64,000 nucleotides of DNA from Eremomyces bilateralis CBS 781.70 (taxonomy: Eukaryota), in NCBI GenBank assembly GCA_010015585.1, contig ML975149.1; one strand, written 5' to 3'. The notes under the pieces are model-generated. The model saw only the letters and a program-made list of their open reading frames with translations. It did no database searches and was not told where the DNA came from. Below are positions 688 through 47,972 of the stretch, one piece after another; position 1 is the first letter of the stretch, and every line of letters begins with the position of its first letter. A program made the position numbers and the translations under genes.

Positions 688-1544
688 TACCTTTCCCCGG
701 GGGTGAGACGGGGAGAGGTGGGTGGATGGATGGACGGAGACCGGGCGCCTAAGAGGAGCGGGCTTGCGAGGGGAGAGCGACGGCTAGTGATATCTTCGTA
801 TCATGGTGGTGGAGAATGACGGAGGGGGTGAGTGGATGGGAACAAGGCCCTGGAACGGGATCGGGATTCGGAAGGGTCAAGGTAAAAGACGTATAGGTAC
901 GTCGAGTACAGAAATGAGAGGATGGTGAATGGTGATAGGGATTAGGGAGGTGCTGAAGGCGCATTTCGGTTCGGATCCGAATCTGCACAAGAAACAGGAT
1001 TATTTAAGATTATTTATTACAGCAATCACAACAGGATGTAACATTAATTACTGCCGCTAGCAGGGGTTAGGCCCACTTGATGCCCTAATATATTACCGTA
1101 ATCTTGATGTCAAACACAGTCATTTCAAAGACAGTCAAAGTCACCCCAAACATCCGAGATTCTGATGACATTGTCGTGACAGTGGCCATTTTCCTCTATC
1201 ACCTCCTATACCTAGATGATCATGGTTATTGAATCGCTAATTGATGCTTGTGTATACTTGATGTGCCTCCGTAATGCAATGTCTATGCTCCATACCTAGC
1301 CAATGAACAGTGTGTTATTTCCAAGGCGTTCCCATCACGATTACGAGATCCAGTTCGGGTGCTTCATGAGCACGTCTTCGGATTATATCATCTAATAAGA
1401 TCTGCCCAAAGGTGGTGGTTTTCAGCCCTTGACATTCTAGCCATTCAAATAAGGCTGCGTGCTCGGTTTCGCAGCACCGAGTCTTGTGCTCGGGACGTTC
1501 CATCTCTCGGTAGGCTATCATGACACAGAGCCCGTGTGTCACCG

Positions 1545-3234
1545 CTACGATATTGGAGTTTCCTTTGTGTCCTGCTGCCTCTTGATTTTGTCAATCCCTA
1601 GGATCGGCCGCAAGTCATCTGCTATTGGAGTGTGCAGCTTAAAACTGTCACCACACTTCTTGAGCTCAGATAACTTCGTGCTCTGACTAATACGGGCCTG
1701 AGTTCGGTATTTTTGTTCCGCGAAGCGTTTGAAAGCTTGCCGGACGTCATTCTCGATGGCGCTAACACCATTGCTTCCAGATTTAATGTTGTCCGGACCA
1801 GGCTTCGTCGATAGATCATTGTCCTTTGTCCCCTGGTTCTCGGTGACCAAGTCCTGATTTCCTTCCTTAATATTTCCCTCGGTTTCTTTGGCAAAATTCC
1901 CACCCAGATGTGAAGCACCAACGTACACTTGCGGCGTTAACGCCTTTCCTACTAATCCAGGAGGGAGATCTAGAAGCATGGGATCTAGAAGAATGGGCTC
2001 TGGTGTCCATGCCGTCTGTGGGTCCCGAGATGCTCTGGGGTCCATGGAAGGAAATAAGTCATAATCTCTAGGGTCTGTTGAAAGAGGAAAATCTGGCTTC
2101 ATGTCTTTCCCTGCCGGTGGTTCATTCGTCTGGTCCATTTGCGACCGCGAGCCATCCAGGTTGCCAGCATCGCGGAATTCTGGACCATTCGACCACTCTT
2201 CTATGGACGCACTATCAATAATATCGGCTTTGGGTATGCCTGCCGACCCTGATGCATCAGGCATAGAAGTCCAGATTCCAGACTCTCGTCTGGGAATTGC
2301 AACCTTCCTAGCTGGTAATTCATAAGGTCGGCCTGGGTACGGAACGTTGGTCGGCCCGTTAGCAACTGGAAGATGTTCTCCCCAACACACCAGATATCGG
2401 CAGACTGAGGATCCGCCTGTCGAGGGTCCCCATCGAACCCGGCCGTCTCGGGGGGCATGAATCCTGGAGTTCCTCGAACACTCGTGGAGTCGAATCCGTG
2501 CATGTCTACGGTACGTTTGGAAAGTCCAAAATCTGAGAGGTTCACCCACCATCTGTCGGGTGGCAAGGTTTTGATTAAGATGTTCTGCGATGCCGCCAGG
2601 GCCGAGTCAGCCGGAACCAATATATTCCAAGGGGCACACCCGTCACTTACAGCCGGCTTTACGTCTCTGTGAGCGAAGCCTTCCTCGTGCATAAACGCCA
2701 ATCCCGTGAGAACTTGGACAGAGATATCGATCACCTCGATCTCGAGAAGACTGCCATGGCGGGCAAGGTACTTCTTTAGGTCTCCGTATTCGCAATATTC
2801 CATGGTGATAAACAGGGATTCCTGACTAGTAAACCAGCCATAGGATTTAATAAAGAAGTCGGTAACTATACTAGTTAGCATATATCAGTCCTGGTCTCAA
2901 TGTATCGTCCTCCCGGCTTGGAGTTAACGGTTGTCACCTTTTCCTGAGAAAACTTCGCCAACGCCTGCAGCTCACGCACATAGTCGAGACCAGCTTGAGC
3001 CGGCCGGTGCAACTGAATTTCCTTGACCGCACGCAGCGCGATTGCTTCTCGGCGCGATAGGAGTCCATCATCGACTCGCCGCTCTAACCAGACCAAGCCG
3101 AAGCCTCCGTGGCCAAGGACCTTTTCCCGACTCCAAGCCTCGCGTCGAGTTCGGTGGATGGCGATATTCCCTGTGAATTCCGTTTCCAGCCTCGAGTCGC
3201 GCACGAGTTCTGGCAACGGTGGTTGTGTCGCCAT
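1545..3234 (-). pseudogene. Ser/Thr protein kinase with C-terminal extension containing a Pbp1/ataxin-2-like segment; probably disrupted
   Basis: Motifs GHGGFG, RAVK, alphaC Glu (RELQAL), HRDVKPA|N (split by an in-frame 66-nt intron), DFG, MPPE and DIWCVG are present. The intron-1 donor (phase 0, after SQEK) does not match the phase of either nearby AG acceptor. Subdomain XI is missing and the frame changes near 2280 into ORF 1545..2552. Confidence 0.7.
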
Positions 3235-3820
3235 TGCGTAACTTTATCATGGAGCATCCATGTCGTGTTGTCCCAGTGAGTGTCGGTATTTGCGTACCCC
3301 GTCCAGCTATGGACAACGTATCTCAACCTCGAGACCACGTTGATCCCAAATTGCGGAATAAGTTGAGTAAAATTCGGAGGTGTTGGGTCAACCGGCTTTT
3401 AGCATGTAGCCATGCATGAATGCGCAGCCTTGCAGCGCTTTCGACTGCGCCTCAAACCACCTGTCTGTCATTGCCGTCTCTTGAAGGCTTCCCAACAGCC
3501 AATAACAGGTGCCCTGGAGTTCCAGCCTGCGGCCCTGCACATCTCATCGTGAAGTCGGACAGCTGTGACATTGGACAGCTTAAACCAGCCCATTACGCGA
3601 CGGTCATGATCAGGCTCAATATCGGAAGAGATCTGGACTTTAAACACAGTGGAATACTCGTGGCTTTCTCAGATACATACCGGTACTACCATATTTGCCT
3701 CTTCTGCCCTCGCCGCGTGGTAATCGGTGGGCGGCCGAGATCCCTCCTTCTGTATGAAATTGAAATAAGACCAATTGACCAGCCGACTGCCTTCCCTTGG
3801 CAAACGCTTGTGGGTAGATC

Positions 3821-5497
3821 ATGGCTGAATTAGGTCTCGCTATATTTGCCTCGATCGACATTTGTTACAAGTTCGTGCTTTTATATCTCGCACCTTCATG
3901 GGTGCTCTGGCGCTGACCTAGACTACGCAGATATGGAAAGGAATTGGTCGCTATTTGCGGCGCTTTTAACGGAGCCGAAGTGGAGCTCCGCGAGCGGACT
4001 CTGCGGATAAATCTGGGCTGGCGCCGAATCGCCATCCAATTGGACTTCTTGAAAAGGGTTCAACACTTGATGGAGGACGACCACCGAGTGCTGCATGAGA
4101 AGTCTCTCCAAACCTTCGGCAGCAAGCTGAAGCTCGCTACCAGCATGATGAACAGGCTGGTCGAAACTCGAGCTACCGCGTCCCATGACGTCGAGCTGGT
4201 TCCGAAACGAGTCAAATACTCTTTGAAGAAGGAAGGTCTTGATAAGGCCATTGAAGACCTCGAAGCATGGCAGCGAGCATCCGATCCCTCATGGTTTCTG
4301 ATACTGCGCATGGCTGACCGTCAGCTCGATACCGAGATCTCGACGGGAGCCGTTAGAATAGCGGATTCGGTTCCATCAACGCTCACAATACGCGGTAGCG
4401 TGCAAAGTGATGGATCTACCTCAGCTGGAAAGGGTATTACCCTCTCTGCCACAGAGCTCCAAGCCTTGTCGACTGAGCCGATTGCGTACTGTGATGCTGA
4501 GTTGGCACTCAGGGCAAACGATGGCCAAAAGTTCATCCTGGACCGTGTCCATCGCATATGTCCTTCTGACAAGACTTATCGAGACGCTAAACAGACTGTT
4601 CGAGATCTGGCACGGAAATTGACGCACAACGAACCTCTGACGTTCGGATTGCTGAGTTGCAAAGGCTTCGTGACCGAAGTGTCCGGCACAGGACCGGACC
4701 GACGCGCCACTTTCACCATGGTTTTGAGAACGTTGAAAGGCTACTCCAATCCCCGTAGCCTTCGCCATTATGTTGTATCGGATGATTGTCTGGAGTCGTT
4801 GTCTCAGCGGGTGGAAATCGCGCAGGATCTAGCGAAATCGGTAAGCTATGTCCATACATTTGGCTTTGTCCACAAGAACATCCGACCCGAGACCGTCCTT
4901 GCTTGCCGCAAACCTGGCACCACGGAGCTATGCACCTTTCTGATCGGGTTCGACGATTTCCGCAGAGAGGACAACTGGACCCTTCGGAGGGGTTACGATG
5001 ACTGGGAGAAGAATTTATATTGCCACCCGTCCCGGCAAGGAGCGACTCCTGCGGAAGACTATGACATGCGGCACGATATCTATAGTCTTGGTGTATGTAT
5101 GCTTGAAATCGGGTTGTGGCAGAGCTTCGTGGAGTACAACGCCGCCGGCAACGCTTCGATTCCATCTTCTATCCTTGAAAAGGCTCGTGTTCAGCGCCCA
5201 GAGCAGTTAGCCTCCTATCTCCTGACTTCTATGAAAGACAAGTTCGTTTCGTTAGCTCACGATCGACTTCCTCGGGCCATGGGCTCCAAGTACGCCGAGA
5301 TTGTGGTGACTTGTCTGACATGCTTGGATCCAGAAAATCCAGACTTTGGAGATCAAAGCGAATTCGAGGATGAGGATGGGATACATGTTGGTGTCCGTTA
5401 CATCGAAAAGGTCAGTGATGCCCCAGTCGGTCATCTGTTAGAAGCACCAATTAACACCATGTAGGTGCTACTTCGTCTCAACAATCTCTGCATTTAA
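3821..5497 (+). CDS. HeLo/HeLo-like N-terminal domain + pseudokinase (MLKL-like architecture)
   Basis: Three exons (3821-3870, 3931-5410, 5465-5497) with canonical GT-AG introns. Hydrophobic N-terminal helix MAELGLAIFASIDICYKYGKELV and a helical domain ending KRVKYSLKKEGLDKAIEDLEAWQ. Kinase fold with VHKNIRPETVL, LIGFDDFR, YCHP and HDIYSLGVCMLEIGLW. Confidence 0.85.
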
Positions 5498-5781
5498 AGA
5501 CCCAGAAGACCATTGGTGTTGACTTGTAAGGAAGCCTGGGTCGTGTTAAACTGCAGATGCATGATCGGCAGTACCTAGATTCAGAATCTAGAATCTTTAG
5601 AAAATCCTTTAAAAGCCTTTTAGAGACGAATCCATGACTGCACTATGACGATTTGCGACGATATGCATTAGATGACTCCAGCTCAAATGTAAAATTGACT
5701 TGATAGAATACCCACAACTTCCATCGCGACAGTGGACAAAAGCTTAGTAGTGATACACGGACTGTACGGGGCACCTTCTCC

Positions 5782-23800: not shown

Positions 23801-24758
23801 AAGACAAGAAACAAGCAAGCAACCAAGCAGATAACGCGCAGTAGCGCAGTTGCACAGTGCCTGCGGAGTCCCGGTAACTGGGCGTACTAACTGACCTTAG
23901 TACGGTCCTGACGGAGGACATGGAGTGGTGTACCCCCTCAGAGGTTCATACCAAGCACTGCAAGTCCGCAACGCGCCAACGCCTCCTTTTCTCTCCACGA
24001 AGCCGCGAACGGCCTGGCCCTCCCTGACCTTTCTCCACACCGACATTATGGCATCAACCAAGGCGGACCCCCTCATTCTGCCCAGCCCACCGGACACCAG
24101 TGCACATTCTCCCATGTCACCGTCACAGGCTTACAGCCAAACTTAGCTGTATACATATTACTCACCCTTCCCCATGCTCCTGTGCCAGATACCCACTTTG
24201 ACCTCTCTTTCCTGTTATCCATCCTCTGTACATGGTACATCCAGTACCCTCGACCGCAACCAGCTCTGCTTCTTAACAGACGACCTGTTCATCCTCTTCC
24301 CATTCGAACCTCAATCGATCCCGGCGGACTCGATCTTGCCGGCCGCTTGCGCTTTGTGCGGGCGGGTGTCTGCATGCCGTGATCGGCCTGCTTCCTGGCA
24401 CTGCACCTCTCCGAGAATCTTATATATCGGCCTTCCGCCAATCCACCACTTCGAGGCACGGTTGATCGTCCTGACCAGGACGGTGACACCAGCCTCTCCA
24501 TAAACAGTCATCGTGGCGATCCCGCTGCCAGCTCTTTCGTCCGCCCTCGCTCATACACCCAATCCGTTCCCGCTCTCGCGTTCAGAGCTGCTTCGGCCTC
24601 GTTCCCCAAGCTTCCGAACCACCTTCGACCCCGCGACAGGCATCGTCGAATCCGTCGAAACGGCTCCAAACGGGTCTTCATCAACAAACCCTACCGCCTC
24701 ATCTTCCGTTCCATGGTTCCCCACCCGCCTCGAAGGCGAGGGTAATATTCCCCGCCAT

Positions 24759-26558
24759 ATGTCGCATCGGGATGCCACGGGTTCTGGCGCCACTCCTGGT
24801 ACCTCGTCTGGATATGATTTGCCACGCATTCCAAAGTTCGACGGATCACTCTCACAAAGTCAGGCCCCGTCCATTAGCGGAATGGCATCAGCAGCTTCCT
24901 CACGCCCAGTGAGTGTGGAGCGGAGCGTCGAGCCAATCTTCCTGGCGCCAATCGACCGTGGAGTAAGCCCAGCAATGTCGGATGGACAGAGGAGCTCTGG
25001 GAGCCGGTCGATTGGGGTACATTCGATGTTGAATCCGTCTAGCGAAGACCAGACGGGACAACATGGGAGGCGACGGAGTGCTGCGCAGATGGAAGCGTCC
25101 TCAACCGAGACAACACCATATTTACTCCCCAGGCCTCTGAGCCGCATGCCTAGCGAGGAAAGCGCCATGAGCGATATATCGCCGGTTAAATTTGAATCCA
25201 GAGCAAATGGGGACGGGAGAAAGATTTTGACGCCACGATCTCCGACCGTTCGCCGTGGCCCGTTGGGCCAACCTACAGGGTCCATCGACGCACATCAGAC
25301 TCCGTTTATTACCGCAGGTAGCGGACGAAGCTTTCCGGAGCCCGTCCCGTCTCAACCACTTCTCGCTTCTATATCTGGATACCGCCAATCCCACTTTCCA
25401 CTACCGAAGGCACCGACTCCACCTCTGGCTCATAGTCGTCGTCCCAGTCTCGGCATCATTCCTTCTTCCGCGGCCGCCAGCCCAGGCGCTAGCACCAACT
25501 ACTCTTCCTACAGCCAAGGACAGACTTCTCCAGCAACGCCATATGGTGCGCATTCCAACAACCCGACCCCACCCGGATCCTTCCAGTTGGGCCCCACTCC
25601 CGCTGGCCCCCTGAGTGCTATTCCTCATCAAGGACTCGATCAATCCTCATCAGCGCATCCTTCACGTTCCTATCCTGGCACTCCAACCTACCGTCACAAT
25701 TCCATCCCAGTCGCGGCCGCGTCCCAATCGATCCAAGTGTTCACCATATCCACCGCCAAGGGACCCGTTCAAGTTCCAGTCGACGTGCAGGCGGCCTCCC
25801 GAGTCGCGGATGAAAAACGCCGCCGGAACGCGGGAGCCTCTGCTCGATTCCGCGCACGTCGCAAGGAGAAAGAGAGGGAGGCTAGCACAACGATCTCGAG
25901 GCTCGAGCAACGACTGCGAGATGCGCTGGAGGATGCTGAATTTTACCGCTCGGAAAGGGATTTCTTAGTAGAGGCGGTGTGCCGAGTTCCTGGAGGTGCA
26001 AGGGAATTCTTTCCCCGACCCGAGTCTCCTTGCAGAAACCGGAGAGAAGTTTCCGCAACCCCCACCGGGGAAGACCGAACGGATGACGGATCTACTAGTC
26101 CGCCTCCGTATGAGGTTTCGGCCAGGGAAAGAGAAAGAGAACGACGAAGAGATGCCGATGCAGCAAGGAAAGGCGAAGAGAGGAACACCCGAAGGAGAAC
26201 AGAGGGATACGACGCTCCGCAAGGAACCATTGAGATCTATCCCAGCGATGACAAGCAACCGTTATACTCAGCATCTCACCCACTCCAGCATCCCTCGCCG
26301 CATTCGCATCCTGTAAGCCACGAGCCGTCGCAGCACCCCTCATTCGCTCCCCAATTGCCTGCTTATCAGGACCGGTATCCGAACCACTTGTCCCAGTCGG
26401 TGCCACGGTACGGAGCACCTCCACCTGCATTCGCACGCCATGCGCAGGCGCATGATACATCGGCATCCCAACCGAGGCAGCCCAATCCTAATTCCGGTGG
26501 ACGAACGGACCGATCCGCTGATGGGGGGTACCCCTCGTATGGCAAAGAAGCGCGGTAG
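24759..26558 (+). CDS. bZIP transcription factor (VDVQAAS...EKRRRNAGASARFR type)
   Basis: Basic region ADEKRRRNAGASARFRARRKEKE with heptad ISRLEQRLRDALEDAEFYRSERDFL, and a long S/P-rich N-terminus. First ATG is at 24759, but the frame is open from 24513. Confidence 0.9.
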   Translation: MSHRDATGSGATPGTSSGYDLPRIPKFDGSLSQSQAPSISGMASAASSRPVSVERSVEPIFLAPIDRGVSPAMSDGQRSSGSRSIGVHSMLNPSSEDQTGQHGRRRSAAQMEASSTETTPYLLPRPLSRMPSEESAMSDISPVKFESRANGDGRKILTPRSPTVRRGPLGQPTGSIDAHQTPFITAGSGRSFPEPVPSQPLLASISGYRQSHFPLPKAPTPPLAHSRRPSLGIIPSSAAASPGASTNYSSYSQGQTSPATPYGAHSNNPTPPGSFQLGPTPAGPLSAIPHQGLDQSSSAHPSRSYPGTPTYRHNSIPVAAASQSIQVFTISTAKGPVQVPVDVQAASRVADEKRRRNAGASARFRARRKEKEREASTTISRLEQRLRDALEDAEFYRSERDFLVEAVCRVPGGAREFFPRPESPCRNRREVSATPTGEDRTDDGSTSPPPYEVSARERERERRRDADAARKGEERNTRRRTEGYDAPQGTIEIYPSDDKQPLYSASHPLQHPSPHSHPVSHEPSQHPSFAPQLPAYQDRYPNHLSQSVPRYGAPPPAFARHAQAHDTSASQPRQPNPNSGGRTDRSADGGYPSYGKEAR

Positions 26559-38286: not shown

Positions 38287-40733
38287 ATGGCTTTTCCAAT
38301 CCAGATAGGCGATGTCATCCACTTGGGTAAAGCCGCATGGGAGCTTTACAACTATGGTTGGAACGCTGATCTAAGAGCCAGTAAGTACTCGATGGATTTG
38401 CGTAGATAGACATACGAGCTGATTTGTAAGGTCGACAATATGCGGATTTTGGCCAGTTAGTCAAAAGTCTTGCAGAGAACTTGGATAACATCGGCAGAGT
38501 CATCAACAATGCCGTCTCTCATATGCAGACTCGGCGTATGTCGATGGCTCTGCCGGTATGGGATCTAACCAGCGTTCGAGAAATCACCGGCGATTATACA
38601 AACACAATACTCGAGTGCAACCGTCTCCTAAAACAAAACGAGCAATTCCGTCAAGACACTTCCCCGATGAGCAACATCGAATGGCATCTCCTCCTTCAGC
38701 CAAATGTCGATCGGCTGAAGCAGCGTGTGGAGATGCATAATAACAAGATCCTATTTCTGTTAAAGCCTCTGGAGATTGACCTACTGTGCCGCATTCACGA
38801 AGACTTGGCGAGTCGAATCGACGTGGTCTATCGCGAAGTGAGGATGTTGCGTCTTGGTGGCATGGTGGTGGACGATCCTCAACAAGGAAAGGAACAGCTG
38901 GATTCACATGAGACACCGTCTCTCCCTATATCGCAGGAACATGACTTCAACTTCCAAAGGGCATCCGAAGTTGGCCACCCTGAGCTTCGAGATAGTGACA
39001 ACTTCCCACTCGCAGAGGGTTCTGAATCACTCATTTCCCTATTTCAGAATGCGACCTCGGAGTTCCAGCCTGGAATCTTCCTTCACGAAAGATCACCATC
39101 TCCCGAACAGTACCTCAATCTTCTCAAATGCGTCTGGATCATCCAGAAACTCCATAACAATCCTCGTCTACGCAATGCAGATTCGAATTCTCACTGGCCG
39201 TCGTTCATTAAACAACTTGAGTTGAATGTCTCCCAGGAGTGCTGGAGATTCACGGCTCAGTGTCCAAACCAACTCACTCCCCCCTCAACGTTTGCGTTGG
39301 TAGAAGAGCACTTTAGCATCTGGCCAATAATGGAGCCAAACGAAATCCTATCTCCTTCATATGTTGAGCAAGGGATGATGGACGAGTTACTACAGATCCA
39401 GTTAGCCAGCACACCTACGAATGCAAAGACTCTACGAGTGCTACGGGCGACGGAAAATAGGCTGCGGGTCGAAGAGACTGCTACCGAACGAACGCCGGAA
39501 GGGAAGTCTCGAACCGAGTCGCGAATCTTGGATCTACGCCTGAAGACCGCCAAGATCGTACCTTTATATGCTGCACCTGGAAGAGGCCAGAGTGCACACA
39601 ATATCGTCCTCCGGACCGAATCATCCACAACCCAATTGTCATTCGCAAATCGAAAAGATATTCTCAAATTCCAGCAAGCTTTGACTGGTTTCAAGTGTTA
39701 CTCTTCCTACGACAGACCTAATTGTCAAGTCAGCCTGATCGTGGCCGGGAAGAACGGACCTACAATTGCCGAAGCACATGTCCAGCTTTGGATGCCAAAG
39801 GAAATAGAAGGCACACCAAGTACAGGCGCTTCAACTGCAACAGTCAATTTTCAACCATCCCGCAATTCTGTTGCATCTATACCAACCGTAGCTGGAATTC
39901 CAATACCCAACTTCCCGACCCCAACGTCACCAGACACCTTCTTTACAACTCCTGACCCCTTCGCGCCTCTAATGAAAAGTCTAAACTTAAAAGATACACT
40001 GGGCACTAGCCCTACGACTGTCTCGAGCAGCACCTTTCTGTCCGTGAGCCCTCCAAGGAATATGGAGAGGAGTTCGAGCCAAGGGAGCTCTCCGAAATCG
40101 GGATCTTCCAGTCGAAGACCGTCGTCCATGTCGCTCAGCAGCAACACAAGCCAAGGAAGCCGGACGACTCGAGTCACCGTAAAATTGGGTCCACAGGAAG
40201 AAGGTTACACGTATCGCAGACCGCTTCGCCCGATGCTTGTTCTCTACCTGAAGCTGCCGGACCAAAAGCTCTCATTCGTCACCATCCACATTGATGAAAA
40301 TACCGCTATGAATCCAGAACGATGCAAATGCCATATTTCCGGTAATCACTGTCCTATCTCTGCTATCGAGCGTAGCAAGGGAACCAAGGATCTTCTTGCC
40401 CAGCGATATGATGCGGAGGACTCGGAAGACTGGGACATCACGCGCCTCGGCACGACGAAGCGGAAAGAGCTCCCGGAACAGGAATTTCGAGGCCTGCAGA
40501 GGGTCAGTATCAAGTTCGAAAACGAGCAACTACGGAAAGAGTTCGGTGGGGTCGCCTGCCGTTGCAACCTGGTTCGCGTTATCGATCTGCAAAAATGCAT
40601 TCGAGGAGGTCATCAAGGCTTGTTTGGCGAGGTGAAGCAGCATGGACGAAGAGAGATGCATCTCTGGCATCACGAACAAAACGAAAGGCGTGATATTGTT
40701 ACTGGTCGTCAGCCTGAACTGTATGGAGCTTGA
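38287..40733 (+). CDS. Hypothetical protein with HeLo-like/fungal STAND-type N-terminal helical domain and uncharacterised C-terminus
   Basis: Exon 1 (38287-38380, MAFPIQIGDVIHLGKAAWELY) is joined by intron 38381-38430 in frame to the 750-aa ORF. No P-loop is seen. Ser-rich linker and Cys/His motifs lie near the C-terminus. Confidence 0.8.
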
Positions 40734-43460: not shown

Positions 43461-46400
43461 TCAATCCACCCAAAAGCACCATAAAATGGCCCTTCCAACA
43501 CCCCTCACCACGGTAATCGATCCTTTCACTAGCACGACCCAGACGAACCATACCCACCACATGATCCCGAGCAGCATCCACTCTAGCAACACAAACCCAA
43601 CTCGGCGCACCCATCGGAACCGCCTGCGTCGCATCCGGATCAGCCGCTCGACCCGCTCATTGACGCGACGCAGCTCCAGCGTGAGGTCGCGGGATAGAGA
43701 CCCAGTGATGTTGTCCGCGGTATCGGACAAGAGGAGAGTATTCGGTAAGAGGTCATCGCTGGTGAGCTCGCGAAAGGAGGAGAGGTGCGTGGAGATGCTT
43801 GAGGCCTGGGACTGGAAGAGAGTGCCTTGTTGTTTAAGTGTAAGAGAGAGGTTGTTGAGTGACGAGGATAGAGTGCGGCAACCGATCGTGACCAGCTGGT
43901 GGTGCGACTGGCTGTGTTGCGCGAGGGTAAAGGCCTCCTGCATGGATTCGTCGATGGAGCGGAGGTTGGACGGCGCGAGTTCTTCAACATCGGCCTCGGA
44001 GAACTTCTGTCGCATCTCACCCAATATATTGTGGGAGATACATTCGCCATTGATGGCTTCGCGTAGGAACTCCGGCATTGCTTCTTGCTCGACATCATGA
44101 CGACCGGGTGCCGCTCGAGCACCCCTCACATCGACTTCCCGCAAGTAAAGACTCCGGGCTTTGATCCCGGCACAAAGCAGCAGCGCCTCGATCCGTGCGA
44201 TGCTCTTCGCGTCGACGGTCTCTAGTTCTTCATCCTCCCCTGTTATGGAGGCGTTAGCATCATTGCCGCTCACAATACTGCTTGCTTTTCGATTGCTGTG
44301 TTGCGAGATAGACCAGTGTCGGTGGGATCTTGGGTACATGGTGTCATCTTGATTCACAGAGAGCCCACCTCGACTGCGGCTTCTGCTAGCAGATAAGTGT
44401 GAAGTATAGGATCTTCGATCCGGGCGAACCCGTCCGGTGCTAGAGGTTCGGGCCCCTCTGCCCACGACAGCAGCAAGACGTGCACTCGATTTTGATGCTC
44501 GGTTTGTGTCCTTTCTGCTAGTTGGCTTCCACAGTCGCCTCGAAGCAGCGTTATCGACGTCCAAGAACTGGGAGTCATCTACGGCTTGCTCACTCGGCCA
44601 TTTGGAGAGTTCCGGAGATGAAGCAGTTTGGATGCGCCCAAGGTCATCCTTTAATCGGTCGAGGCGGGGTGAGCGATTGGCGCTTTGTGCAGCCTTCTGG
44701 GCGGAGATGTGGTCGGGATTGGACGGTTCCGACATATCTTCTCGGATCGAATGTACGTCGAGGTGTCTGAATGTCGGCAACTCGCCCCGGTATCGTGGCA
44801 TGGTGGTCTCTCGTCGGCGTTCCAGGTTAGATGTCGACTGTGTGTGAATTGCCGTCTTCTTTGACTTCATAACTTCATCATCTTCGGTCGTGTCCGATTC
44901 GTCCTCGCCATTGGTGTGAGAATCTGAATTAACATCATGCTTGTTATTCCCACGTCCAATATCGCCTAGCCGCCCTCTAAAAAATCTCGAAACAGATGAT
45001 CCGGGCTCTTTCTCGTCCTTTGAGCGTTTCCTATAGCCGATAGGAGCCATCTGCCCAGTGATTGGCACGTCATCCTTCTGAACTGGCACAGGAATGGCCG
45101 ACTTCGGGTATATTCCACCATTCGCACCCATGCCTTGGCTAGTACTTCCAGATCTCTCTCGTTCACCGCTTGCTTGCCGAGAGCTTCTGTCGTCGCTCTC
45201 TTGGTCAACCCGCTTCACCAGTTTGGCCAGCTCGCCGCCAAATTTCGGTAGATGCCTAGTAAACTTCTTGTCTCTCGTCGGGCTTTGTTTGCGGCTGGAG
45301 GCAGGGGAAATGACGGCCATGTTATGTGACAGAGCTTGGACAAGCGGAGAACTGGGTGTCGTGGAGTTGTTCCGATCGGCATCCATCGATGACCCTGTCG
45401 AAGGCGATTTCTGCCGCTGGTCGAGTTGGATAGTGGGAATTTGTCGACCGACTTGTTTCGGGGGAGTTTTCATGACAGCGAGTTCCGGCGAGGTGGGACT
45501 CGAGCTAGGTTGTGGCTCGTTGGATGGCTTTACCCCCTCCCTTCCCCATTTATCAGGAGTTCCCGGGCTAACTAAAGCTGTGGTGCCCTGATCAGGAGCA
45601 AGATGGGCGGCGCTCACGCGGAGTTGCTGCGCCATAAAGCGTTCCAAAGGCGCAGTGTTCTCCTCGCCTTCTCTGGGCGCCCTCCTCCGCCTCTTGCGCT
45701 CCTTGCCCTCATACTCCGAGTCCGTACTGCTTAATCCGCTCGAACTCGGGCTTCTGGCTCGAGCAGCCATGTTCCACGCTTGCTTGAGAGGGTTATTTCC
45801 AGACCCCTCATCGCGGCTTCCCTTGCCGAGGAATCGACGCTTGTGCCGCCGTCCTCGATTAGAATCCGGATCTCGTTCATCGCTTGGAATACTTGGCTCA
45901 GATTCCGTGGATTTTATAGACAAGGCCGTGTTCGATAGCGCGGAATTTCTGCGGCGGTGCGGGTCTCGAGGAACCTCCAGGCTAGGACGGACTTGGGAGG
46001 TTGACTCCGTCGCAGGAAGCTGCCCTGCGACGTCGGACTCAAAGCTCGGGAAGATTTTGTTTCCGTTTCGCTTTTCTATTTCAGCTTTGTGAGCATCTTG
46101 TTCAAGCCAGTATGCATCCGCTAAGAGTTCGGATGGCTCCGCGGTCCAATCCGGTTGTCGCCTTGATTTCCAGCCTGGTCCAATACCAGAAGTGCGCCCA
46201 TGGCTTGTTGGATGCCCATGCTCGGCATATTGAGGTAGCCGGACGTTATCTCCGCCTCGGTAGTCCGGTTGGCGTGCAGCATGCTGAACAGTATCAATCC
46301 AGTACCGGACGCGTACGACGTCAGTCCAATGTTCGGGAGTAGGCCGTAACTCAATCCTAGAGCGGTTGCGTAACTTCCGGTCCCGGATTAATTGCATCGG

Positions 46401-47522
46401 ATTATATTCGCGTCCAAGTGGGTGAACTTTCCCGGAGTGAGACGGCACCCTCTTCAGATCCACGTTTGAAGATCCAGGAATGCCCGTCGAAGTGTAATAG
46501 GAGTTGCCGGGAGCCTCGCTGCTCGATTTCAAGGGCGGTAGAAACTGCAACAACCTCCAATGCTCAACCTTCAGTTCCATGTATGCTCGAAACTTCTCCG
46601 CCCGCTTCAGGGTGGCATCAGAGAACGCGAAGTCGCTTAGCGGGACAACCGTAGGCGGTGAGCCGGGTATGGACAACGGTATCGACGTTGGGGAAGAGCT
46701 CCCAGCGCTGAAGGTCTGCGATGCTTGCCGTTGCCGCTGAAGATGTACTCGTAAATTTCCCCCGCTATAGTTCTGATGGATTCCAGCGCGGGGTGTCGGG
46801 GAAAACCCGCCGGAGGCGTTCCGTCCCCCGGTTAGAAACTGGGAATTATGGGAGGTTCTTCGACGCGTTTCGCTGAGGTTGAGGGCCATATGGACAAGTT
46901 GCATAGGGTCAATGCTCGACGTCGCAGATGTCGGCCGCCCGGGGTCGAAGAGAGCATCTTGGACCGGTTGAATTTCTTGATCATCCTGGTCCTGATGCTT
47001 TGTGCTTTCTCTCAGGTCCTCAGACATACCCGCACTTTGTCCTGTAGACGTATTTCTTGAACTGGTCGTTGAGTCTCGGTGTCTGTGTGGAGCAGATGGC
47101 GGTTCTGGGGTGACTCTTGGAGAAGCTCTTGGATAAGGATACGGTGCCTTTCCATTGCTCTTGCCCGACCCTCTCCGGCTATCAACTTGCGATATCCTCC
47201 CTGACCCCTTTGGCTCGGTGTGTTTCCCTAAAGAAGGCAAGAGAAACCCTCCTGTGCTCCTTGGCCGATGTCTTCGCAGCGTGCCCAACCGCGACTCGTT
47301 TCCCCCAAAGCTGCTCAACGGCGTCCCCTCTCGAGATGGGGGGCCCGGTGAAGGCGACGCTGAGAGTCGGGATGGAGTAGGACTTCGGTCATATCCAAAG
47401 CTCTGCCCGCGTTGGTCGGAGGTTGGAGTGGCATGACGGGAGTATGTAGTCGATGATGAAGGGTCGGAGGGGTGAAGTGACGACGCCATGGACAACCTTC
47501 CCGTGGAGGCATCCTTGGACAT
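43461..47522 (-). CDS. Mtc4-like protein (maintenance of telomere capping 4 family), largely disordered with a C-terminal TM segment
   Basis: GREYNPMQLIRDRKLRNR resembles the conserved Mtc4 block. Also ELLADAYWLEQ, a C-terminal coiled coil and RFRWVRRVGFVLLEWMLLGIMWWVWF. An alternative ATG lies at 47570. Confidence 0.75.
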   Translation of the reverse strand: MSKDASTGRLSMASSLHPSDPSSSTTYSRHATPTSDQRGQSFGYDRSPTPSRLSASPSPGPPSREGTPLSSFGGNESRLGTLRRHRPRSTGGFLLPSLGKHTEPKGSGRISQVDSRRGSGKSNGKAPYPYPRASPRVTPEPPSAPHRHRDSTTSSRNTSTGQSAGMSEDLRESTKHQDQDDQEIQPVQDALFDPGRPTSATSSIDPMQLVHMALNLSETRRRTSHNSQFLTGGRNASGGFSPTPRAGIHQNYSGGNLRVHLQRQRQASQTFSAGSSSPTSIPLSIPGSPPTVVPLSDFAFSDATLKRAEKFRAYMELKVEHWRLLQFLPPLKSSSEAPGNSYYTSTGIPGSSNVDLKRVPSHSGKVHPLGREYNPMQLIRDRKLRNRSRIELRPTPEHWTDVVRVRYWIDTVQHAARQPDYRGGDNVRLPQYAEHGHPTSHGRTSGIGPGWKSRRQPDWTAEPSELLADAYWLEQDAHKAEIEKRNGNKIFPSFESDVAGQLPATESTSQVRPSLEVPRDPHRRRNSALSNTALSIKSTESEPSIPSDERDPDSNRGRRHKRRFLGKGSRDEGSGNNPLKQAWNMAARARSPSSSGLSSTDSEYEGKERKRRRRAPREGEENTAPLERFMAQQLRVSAAHLAPDQGTTALVSPGTPDKWGREGVKPSNEPQPSSSPTSPELAVMKTPPKQVGRQIPTIQLDQRQKSPSTGSSMDADRNNSTTPSSPLVQALSHNMAVISPASSRKQSPTRDKKFTRHLPKFGGELAKLVKRVDQESDDRSSRQASGERERSGSTSQGMGANGGIYPKSAIPVPVQKDDVPITGQMAPIGYRKRSKDEKEPGSSVSRFFRGRLGDIGRGNNKHDVNSDSHTNGEDESDTTEDDEVMKSKKTAIHTQSTSNLERRRETTMPRYRGELPTFRHLDVHSIREDMSEPSNPDHISAQKAAQSANRSPRLDRLKDDLGRIQTASSPELSKWPSEQAVDDSQFLDVDNAASRRLWKPTSRKDTNRASKSSARLAAVVGRGARTSSTGRVRPDRRSYTSHLSASRSRSRGGLSVNQDDTMYPRSHRHWSISQHSNRKASSIVSGNDANASITGEDEELETVDAKSIARIEALLLCAGIKARSLYLREVDVRGARAAPGRHDVEQEAMPEFLREAINGECISHNILGEMRQKFSEADVEELAPSNLRSIDESMQEAFTLAQHSQSHHQLVTIGCRTLSSSLNNLSLTLKQQGTLFQSQASSISTHLSSFRELTSDDLLPNTLLLSDTADNITGSLSRDLTLELRRVNERVERLIRMRRRRFRWVRRVGFVLLEWMLLGIMWWVWFVWVVLVKGSITVVRGVGRAILWCFWVD

Positions 47523-47972
47523 TATCTGGGAGCTGAACGGTTGAAGATGGTGAAGGTGACATATTTCCACATGTTTGCCCTATTGTGAGAGGTAGGGATC
47601 CCGTGGACGACTTCGTTGTACTTTGTAGATCAAAGCTAGGAGTTTGTTGTAGGCGGTGAATGGCATGTGATGCATATGGTGGCGTATATGTCATTCGACC
47701 TCGTACTTAATATCCCGTGCAAGTCCCGCCAATGTCCCGACCTTGCAGCGGATACAGCCGCCTACGCCAATCAACTCATTTCTCGCGGTATTGGGATACA
47801 TCAAGGTATATGCATTTCCTGTGTTCCGTATTGTCCCATATTTACGCCAATATGAAACTTCCTTGCCTAGGATCTTGATGGAATGCTTTAAGGTTATAAT
47901 ATACATATATGTTTCTACTTGATAAGGAATAACTATTAGCAGCCAACTAGTCACTAAGTTAGTTACAGCATG

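Follow-up and report, generated by a model that had tools for sequence, protein, structure and literature searches.

A kinase and MLKL-like pseudokinase gene pair that appears conserved in Pezizomycotina, with a decayed kinase in Eremomyces bilateralis

The stretch of DNA analysed here (the window, 64,000 nucleotides of contig ML975149.1) comes from Eremomyces bilateralis CBS 781.70 (Dothideomycetes, Eremomycetales). It carries two kinase-fold genes that point away from each other, gene A (1545..3234, minus strand) and gene B (3821..5497, plus strand). The 586 bp spacer between them (3235..3820) runs from the ATG of gene A at 3234 to the start of gene B at 3821 and is presumed to be a bidirectional promoter; in 27 related divergent loci the median spacer is estimated at ~514 bp. 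A sequence-only reading of the window had described this arrangement, and its coordinates and features are correct. Judged by comparison with related loci, the pair represents a two-gene module that is conserved in Pezizomycotina, usually in divergent orientation, in which a kinase of the A family lies beside an MLKL-like protein of the B family.

Gene B encodes an MLKL-like protein of 520 residues in three exons (3821-3870, 3931-5410 and 5465-5497, stop included). The product is 100% identical to a 520-residue hypothetical protein (P0002) of E. bilateralis CBS 781.70. An AlphaFold2 (AF2) model of the full-length protein, with a predicted local distance difference test score (pLDDT) of 82 and a predicted template modelling score (pTM) of 0.76, has helices at residues 2-27, 34-63, 66-91 and 110-133, a beta-hairpin between the third and the fourth, short helices at 137-175 and a kinase fold from around residue 190. 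The four long helices, the hairpin and the short linker helices make up an N-terminal helical domain of roughly residues 1-176 in the model (3821..4408, plus strand, spanning the intron 3871-3930). The pseudokinase domain, delimited by Pfam and Foldseek, occupies approximately residues 190-520 (4448..5494, plus strand, spanning the intron 5411-5464). Pfam recognises a weak kinase C-lobe only (PK_Tyr_Ser-Thr, 7.4e-07, with Pkinase sub-threshold), and a Foldseek search with the full-length model returns kinase domains at E ~1e-7, confirming the kinase fold. The codons in the window read HKN where HRD is expected in the catalytic loop (4871..4879, plus strand) and GFD where DFG is expected (4946..4954, plus strand). 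In an alignment of 66 homologues the His and Lys of the catalytic loop are invariant, the third residue is Asn in 46 and Asp in 8, and 58 of the 66 have no Asp; the DFG position reads G-F-E/D/G, its Gly and Phe being present in 66/66. Gene B is thus a pseudokinase, its C-terminal domain lacking the catalytic residues as is characteristic of the MLKL family. An N-terminal helical domain followed by a kinase fold without catalytic motifs is what the sequence-only reading had proposed for gene B, and the AF2 model, the HKN and GFD codons, Pfam and Foldseek all agree with it. The loop that follows the GF motif contains an invariant Arg, and position 367 is Thr in 62 homologues and Ser in the remaining 4. 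Thr367 of gene B (4979..4981, plus strand, codon read in the window) sits in the predicted activation loop, a low-pLDDT segment of the model, and is a candidate phospho-acceptor.

Three public sequencing runs of E. bilateralis, two of them DNA-type and the third denoted X3, were compared with window positions 1400-5600. Run X3 is labelled 'RNA?', which is a guess, and we take it as RNA-derived only since its contigs omit four canonical introns that are present in the DNA runs. The GT..AG stretches omitted are exactly 3871-3930 and 5411-5464, the two introns of gene B, and 2585-2650 and 2866-2937 in gene A. Both DNA-type runs are colinear with the window over the whole interval, and no letter or indel difference from the window was reported in either of them or in the RNA-like X3 contigs. 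Genes A and B are both represented in spliced RNA-like contigs, which speaks to their presence and not to level or transcript ends. We note that a single X3 contig of 9386 nt covers exon 1 of gene A, the full 586 bp spacer and the spliced gene B (window 2938-5600); whether it represents a single transcript is beyond what contigs can show. Two further X3 contigs of 60 nt lie at window 2804-2863, where exon 2 of gene A begins; one is identical to the window with a depth of ~1777, the other carries one substitution and has a depth of ~40.

Gene A encodes a full catalytic motif set in a broken reading frame. Its active-kinase motifs are GHGGFG, RAVK, the alphaC Glu in YVRELQALAKF, HRDVKPANILIK, DFG and GTPGFMPPE. 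Exon 1 (2938..3234, 297 nt; this and all following features of gene A are on the minus strand) contributes a PELVRDSRLE motif, the Gly-loop GHGGFG (3097-3114), the beta3 lysine of RAVK (3022-3024) and the alphaC Glu. Intron 1 (2866..2937, 72 nt) and intron 2 (2585..2650, 66 nt, between HRDVKPA and NILIK) are both absent from the RNA-like contig. They flank exon 2 (2651..2865), which opens 'TT ACC GAC' and holds HRD at 2663-2671. The kinase C-lobe (2201..2584) contains DFG at 2525-2533. A former C-terminal tail (1545..2249) follows in a frame different from that of the kinase core, in the open reading frame (ORF) 1545-2606. The first frame break lies at the exon 1/2 junction. Exon 1 ends in phase 0 and, after the 72 nt intron, exon 2 starts 'TT ACC GAC TTC TTT', so that removal of intron 1 joins the two exons out of frame. 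Homologues read FSQ(E/D)K-Y-(T/S)-(D/N/E)-F-F here, and the window is one base short of the Tyr codon. Reading from the ATG, the frame shifts after Lys99 and meets a stop ~31 codons further on; tblastn puts the two halves of gene A in frames -2 and -1. The second break is at the end of the kinase domain, where an 8-residue gap relative to homologues is followed by the stop at 2201-2203. The ORF 1545-2606 matches the tail of the paired kinase of a related locus, L009, at E 1e-9, with 39% identity over 64 residues.

Neither break is repaired by splicing of the kind we considered. A rescue intron of 44 nt (GTCTGG...GCAG, ~2240-2283) that would rejoin core and tail is ruled out, since the X3 contig is colinear over 1400-2584 and no splice is seen within that interval. 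Splicing from a different donor at 2975 (GTGAGC) would bring exons 1 and 2 back into frame at the cost of the alphaC helix; in the observed joint the donor is at 2937. With at least two frame disruptions, gene A of this strain is a pseudogene that is nonetheless transcribed. The sequence-only reading, in which gene A keeps GxGxxG, AVK, HRD and DFG, was right about the motifs encoded in the window and missed the broken frame. Its further proposal, that the local pair is a working two-component system, does not survive, because the frame disruption of gene A disables the local module. Gene B is intact and transcribed here and has been orphaned by the decay of its kinase. No Eremomyces protein is listed among A-family matches longer than 399 residues; this fits a pseudogene and is no proof of one. 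The tail of the window copy is non-repetitive, without a WD40 or TPR array, and has a short conserved C-terminal motif. A common motif, ...ELKKxxxxFKLxTPIxxDLxPI..., occurs in the A-family tails at window 1596-1766 (minus strand) and L009:998-2404 (minus strand). The motif resembles those of LsmAD type; Pfam gave no match for the tail in the window.

The B family comprises at least 1882 proteins at E <= 0.001 among 8000 candidates scored, with named matches in Sordariomycetes, Dothideomycetes, Leotiomycetes and Eurotiomycetes. Metagenome contigs yielded 394 relatives of B, of which the best 80 loci (labelled L001 and onwards) were searched by tblastn with five A-family proteins; collapsing them at 95% nucleotide identity left 61 distinct B clusters. 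Clusters with at least 1500 bp upstream of B (37/61) were treated as informative, and an A kinase was called at 100 bits or more. An A kinase lies upstream of B on the opposite strand and within 1.5 kb in 27 of the 37 informative loci. A further five have one within 2.7 kb in another arrangement, either downstream on the same strand (L041, L057, L067) or upstream on the same strand (L058, L074). Among loci with short flanks, partial divergent kinases are seen in L001, L017 and L079 and downstream kinases in L039, L070 and L078. As a control for chance, the representative loci contain 36 A genes in 280,220 bases at up to 3.5 kb from B versus none in 232,127 bases further out; extra distant A-like matches are found in L068 and L071, which belong to one cluster and are non-representative. 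The adjacency of A and B is far above chance. It recurs in named genomes as consecutive locus tags within one contig, in Ilyonectria robusta (AUP68_11581/11582), Pestalotiopsis fici (PFICI_11555/11556), Fusarium floridanum (CEP51_010131/010132) and Fusarium lateritium (ACHAPT_005794/005795). These are four of ~12 A matches with serial locus tags, and as the B side was represented by the best 120 of 1882 matches, misses are uninformative.

Pairwise distances within A and within B were compared for 37 pairs (33 loci and the four named genomes). They are correlated with a Mantel r of 0.819, a value reached by none of 2000 permutations, and A and B have the same nearest neighbour in 19 of the 37 pairs. 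As far as distances between sequences can tell, this co-divergence shows inheritance of A and B as a unit, which is not by itself interaction. Both the recurring divergent active kinase and the congruence of A with B had been anticipated by the sequence-only reading, and both are observed. The evidence being genomic, it might also be accounted for by neighbours that share a conserved bidirectional promoter and whose proteins act independently. We consider this improbable. The two genes stay paired at 35-50% protein identity, with four classes represented in the B family; the gene order varies, A lying downstream on the same strand in L039, L041, L057, L070 and L078; and the distances co-vary (Mantel r 0.82). 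A pairing that persists through divergence and changes of gene order points to the partnership, and not a single promoter, as the target of selection.

Decay is found beyond E. bilateralis. Among the B homologues, L002:3514-4995, L032:4977-6446 and L035:10001-11503 each have one in-frame stop and L037:1710-3275 has seven. Both partners of the module decay repeatedly, A in the present genome and B in these four loci. Repeated pseudogenisation and turnover is typical of immune-type genes.

In 50 aligned members of the A family, the glycines of the Gly-loop, the beta3 Lys, the alphaC Glu, the HRD Asp, the following Asn and the DFG motif are all invariant. By these motifs the A-family proteins are expected to be active eukaryotic protein kinases. 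An N-terminal LPELVRDSxLE motif is conserved ahead of the kinase domain. A and B resemble each other in the catalytic-loop region only, and are therefore not recent duplicates. The C-terminal parts of A were analysed in two samples. Twenty long representatives, picked for length and to that extent a biased sample, comprise nine with TPR_10/12-type arrays and two with WD40 (11/20 with repeats), one with a BAG domain and one with RhoGAP. For the paired loci, 55 of 82 same-strand ORFs beyond the kinase domain were scanned in 33 loci, alternative-frame overlaps having been dropped. There, the kinase domain is followed by a WD40 array in 13 loci, a TPR_10/12 array in one and KA1 in one. WD40 or TPR repeats thus follow the paired kinase in at least 14 of the 33 loci, many contigs stopping just past the kinase domain. 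Other members of the family have a long disordered tail with small domains. The WD units of L062 are ~83% identical to one another. High internal repeat identity together with TPR_10 or WD40 arrays is a hallmark of the sensor domains of fungal NOD-like receptors (NLRs; NOD, nucleotide-binding oligomerisation domain). On this comparison, part of the A family carries an NLR-like C-terminal WD40/TPR array whose repeats are highly similar. Neither a NACHT nor an NB-ARC domain turned up in the 20 long representatives or among the A-family matches listed. A simple regular expression for the RHIM core, [IV]Q[IVLC]G, matches none of 22 A-family proteins; the module appears to be without amyloid motifs, which accords with the proposal of the sequence-only reading that amyloid signalling is not used. 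We also note a second kinase ORF (Pkinase, 4.8e-27) at L024:6047-6826 (minus strand), directly beyond the paired A kinase, which may be a tandem kinase, and a 2573-residue relative of the A family, P0235, with six separate Pkinase model matches.

The N-terminal domain of B is less easily placed. The first 16 residues of the family are conserved and hydrophobic or small (M-A/V-E-L-A/G-L-A-I-V/I-G/A-T/A-V-D-L-C). HeLo domains have a membrane-inserting first helix, which the N-terminal residues of B resemble, as can be seen from passages of a review (PMC12881547). A phmmer search with residues 1-200 of gene B against shorter proteins found no relatives, and Pfam gave scattered chance matches only for 41 B N-domains. 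The N-domain of L055, a relative with an intron-free N-terminus, was modelled with a pLDDT of 83.7 and a pTM of 0.71, and this model was used for an exhaustive structural search with VIA-align over 48,161 chains, of which the top 50 were examined. Mouse MLKL (4btf) scored 10.4, with a root-mean-square deviation of 2.2 over 96 residues and 18% identity (chain residues 2-116). The CC-R domain of NRG1.1 (7l7v) scored 9.7, the N-domain of human MLKL (6ux8) 9.6, AtMLKL3 (6ka4) 8.8 with 134 residues aligned, the coiled-coil (CC) domain of MLA13 (9fyc) 8.7 and that of Rx (4m70) 8.4. The four-helix-bundle (4HB) model fits MLKL, NRG1 and AtMLKL3 no better than unrelated bundles. The HeLo domain of HET-s is not among the VIA-align rows listed and is not thereby excluded. 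The modelled structure is compatible with a HeLo/4HB domain. In the ESM Atlas the nearest cluster is HeLo (PF14479) both for residues 1-200 of the window protein (0.93, 181 shared features) and for the L055 N-domain, which is 32% identical to it (0.94, 170 shared features), and clusters partly annotated as PF17111 or SesA come next. These language-model features are the only specific pointer of the N-domain to HeLo. We conclude that the N-domain of B is probably a divergent member of the HeLo/4HB superfamily.

These observations bear on a possible non-lethal role, in which B would activate A allosterically or serve it as a scaffold or substrate adaptor, a role known from other kinase-pseudokinase pairs, and the N-domain of B would be a coiled-coil or localisation module. 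Precedent notwithstanding, we regard this as rather unlikely. By language-model features, two divergent N-domains lie nearest to clusters of HeLo, PF17111 and SesA, the B N-terminus forms a hydrophobic first helix, NLR-type WD40/TPR arrays stand behind the kinase in 14 of 33 loci, and copies have been pseudogenised repeatedly.

The explanation that we favour for the whole, at about even odds (a probability of roughly 0.5), is a conserved module of a sensor kinase and an MLKL-like protein that is triggered by phosphorylation and has decayed in E. bilateralis. The A kinase would be the sensing and activating half, its cue being sensed through the C-terminus. Once triggered, A would dock on the pseudokinase domain of B and phosphorylate its activation loop, for which Thr367 is the candidate site. 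Phosphorylation would free the N-terminal bundle of B, which could then act on membranes, the outcome being regulated death of the cell or some related form of defence. Which way the signal runs, which site is phosphorylated and that membranes are attacked are points that we infer. A broader proposal, which we put forward tentatively and hold to be somewhat short of an even chance, is that there is a widespread phosphorylation-driven, necroptosis-like immune pathway in filamentous fungi. In such a pathway CAMK-like sensor kinases bearing WD40/TPR repeats or tails would directly license an adjacent MLKL-like executioner, without NOD or amyloid templating, and the pathway would have arisen independently of or before animal RIPK3-MLKL.

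Several results weigh against this explanation. The closest solved relatives of A are Rad53, STK17B, CDPKs, ULK1, Chk2 and DAPK (E 1e-27 to 1e-21), and RIPK is absent among the 46 solved relatives listed, so that A does not group with RIPK (TKL). The A-family kinase is nearest to CAMK-type kinases (Rad53/Chk2, DAPK, CDPK, ULK1) and resembles RIPK3 in function at most; on this point the sequence-only reading, which had the module as RIPK3-MLKL-like, is not supported. For the full-length gene B model, the top Foldseek matches are JAK1, TYK2, LIMK1, SYMRK, GSK3 and CDPK, and mouse MLKL (4btf) is found at rank 39; counting in favour of the MLKL-like reading, the 4btf alignment spans 546 columns versus 318-405 for the other rows shown. 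By phmmer in the PDB, the nearest solved kinases to gene B are HRI, LIMK1 and GSK3-beta, with no MLKL among the 60 matches listed. The pseudokinase of gene B is no closer kin to MLKL than to other kinases. As for the N-domain, none of eight full-length B proteins and none of 41 isolated N-domains matches the hidden Markov models (HMMs) of HeLo, PF17111 or SesA at E <= 10, which by HMM puts the domain outside the Pfam families HeLo (PF14479), PF17111 and SesA (PF17107). A profile of the 41 N-domains run against PDB sequences found neither HET-s nor MLKL, the best match being a coiled-coil construct at E 0.058, and Foldseek with the L055 N-domain model gave no match at E <= 0.001. The sequence-only reading of the N-terminus as HeLo/4HB-like therefore finds no HMM match behind it, and stands only to the extent that the model is compatible with a four-helix bundle and the language-model neighbours are HeLo.

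Linkage also has its exceptions, which count on the same side. Five of the 37 informative loci have no A (L021, L032, L033, L035, L077), three of them with an apparently intact B; L032 and L035 each have an in-frame stop in B. No recurrent alternative partner was found beside B in these five loci. We note an ORF with a HET domain (PF06985, 1.3e-25) at L035:5501-7525 (plus strand), ~2.5 kb upstream of the B homologue. The three loci with intact B and no A nearby bear equally on an arrangement of the opposite sign, in which A keeps B in check, whether by sequestering it or through an inhibitory phosphorylation, and B is unleashed once A is lost or inhibited. Toxin-antidote pairs of this kind are typically closely linked and share a promoter. 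However, in addition to these three loci, gene A is frame-disrupted in E. bilateralis while B is intact and found in spliced RNA-like contigs. Evidently, then, B is tolerated even where A no longer works, which speaks against A restraining a constitutively toxic B, and we think this guard arrangement very unlikely.

The other genes of the window are ordinary and include DUF92, SMP-30/gluconolactonase, an mpaB-type oxygenase, a permease for amino acids and a raffinose-synthase-like protein. The pair has neither an NLR nor a HET gene close to it in the window. Three long open frames, 43461-47579 (minus strand, 1372 residues), 38430-40733 (plus strand, 767 residues) and 24504-26558 (plus strand, 684 residues), match no Pfam family at E <= 1e-5.

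If the phosphorylation-triggered module is correct, it would be the first death switch outside animals in which a kinase acts on an MLKL-like protein, and phosphorylation would become a third wiring logic of fungal two-gene immune modules beside amyloid templating and proteolysis. It would also offer a tractable model for the licensing of MLKL-type proteins, those of plants included. The pairing of A with B supplies native pairs that are directly testable, with a predicted phospho-site, and the Eremomyces copy is a natural experiment, an expressed intact effector with a decayed kinase.

The module resembles animal RIPK3-MLKL in that B combines a four-helix bundle (by model) and linker helices with a pseudokinase whose catalytic loop is degenerate and whose DFG has a GFE/GFD-type replacement, and in that a dedicated active kinase is its presumed partner. 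MLKL itself carries GFE and HGK. It differs from RIPK3-MLKL in that A is nearest to CAMK-type kinases and has no RHIM core (0/22), that the B pseudokinase is not specifically nearest to MLKL, and that the A and B genes are adjacent and divergent, many A kinases bearing WD40/TPR repeats. For the plant MLKLs (AtMLKL1-3, Pm13) we know of no linked or activating kinase, and no relationship to B is detectable by sequence. The kinase passages of PMC10197012, PMC9815663 and PMC5485727 do not mention a linked activating kinase. Fungal HELL domains fused to kinase or pseudokinase domains are noted in PMC12881547, whose passages on them say nothing of a partner kinase, of paired genes or of sensor repeats. 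Among the papers listed by our literature searches, we found none that describes a linked fungal pair of a kinase and a HeLo/MLKL-like pseudokinase.

Among fungal systems, HET-S/NWD2 and HELLP/PNT1 share the design of A/B, in that the sensor gene lies next to that of the executioner, the executioner starts with a helical killer domain (a putative one in B) and the sensors use WD40/TPR repeats, according to the relevant passages of PMC12881547. In those systems, however, the signal is amyloid templating from a NOD receptor, whereas A/B has neither NOD nor amyloid motif and the link would run from kinase to pseudokinase; and unlike the HeLo/HELL effectors, the N-domain of B fails the HeLo and PF17111 HMMs. 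In the clusters of a fungal gasdermin with a protease, an enzyme, often with WD40, TPR or ANK repeats, activates an adjacent pore-forming effector, as the same review describes (PMC12881547). A/B is likewise a two-gene module with an enzyme, often repeat-fused, next to an effector; activation there is by proteolysis, whereas in A/B it is presumed to be by phosphorylation of the MLKL-like protein. Two-gene immune modules of fungi are known, and what appears to be new is a putative MLKL-like executioner paired with a kinase within one.

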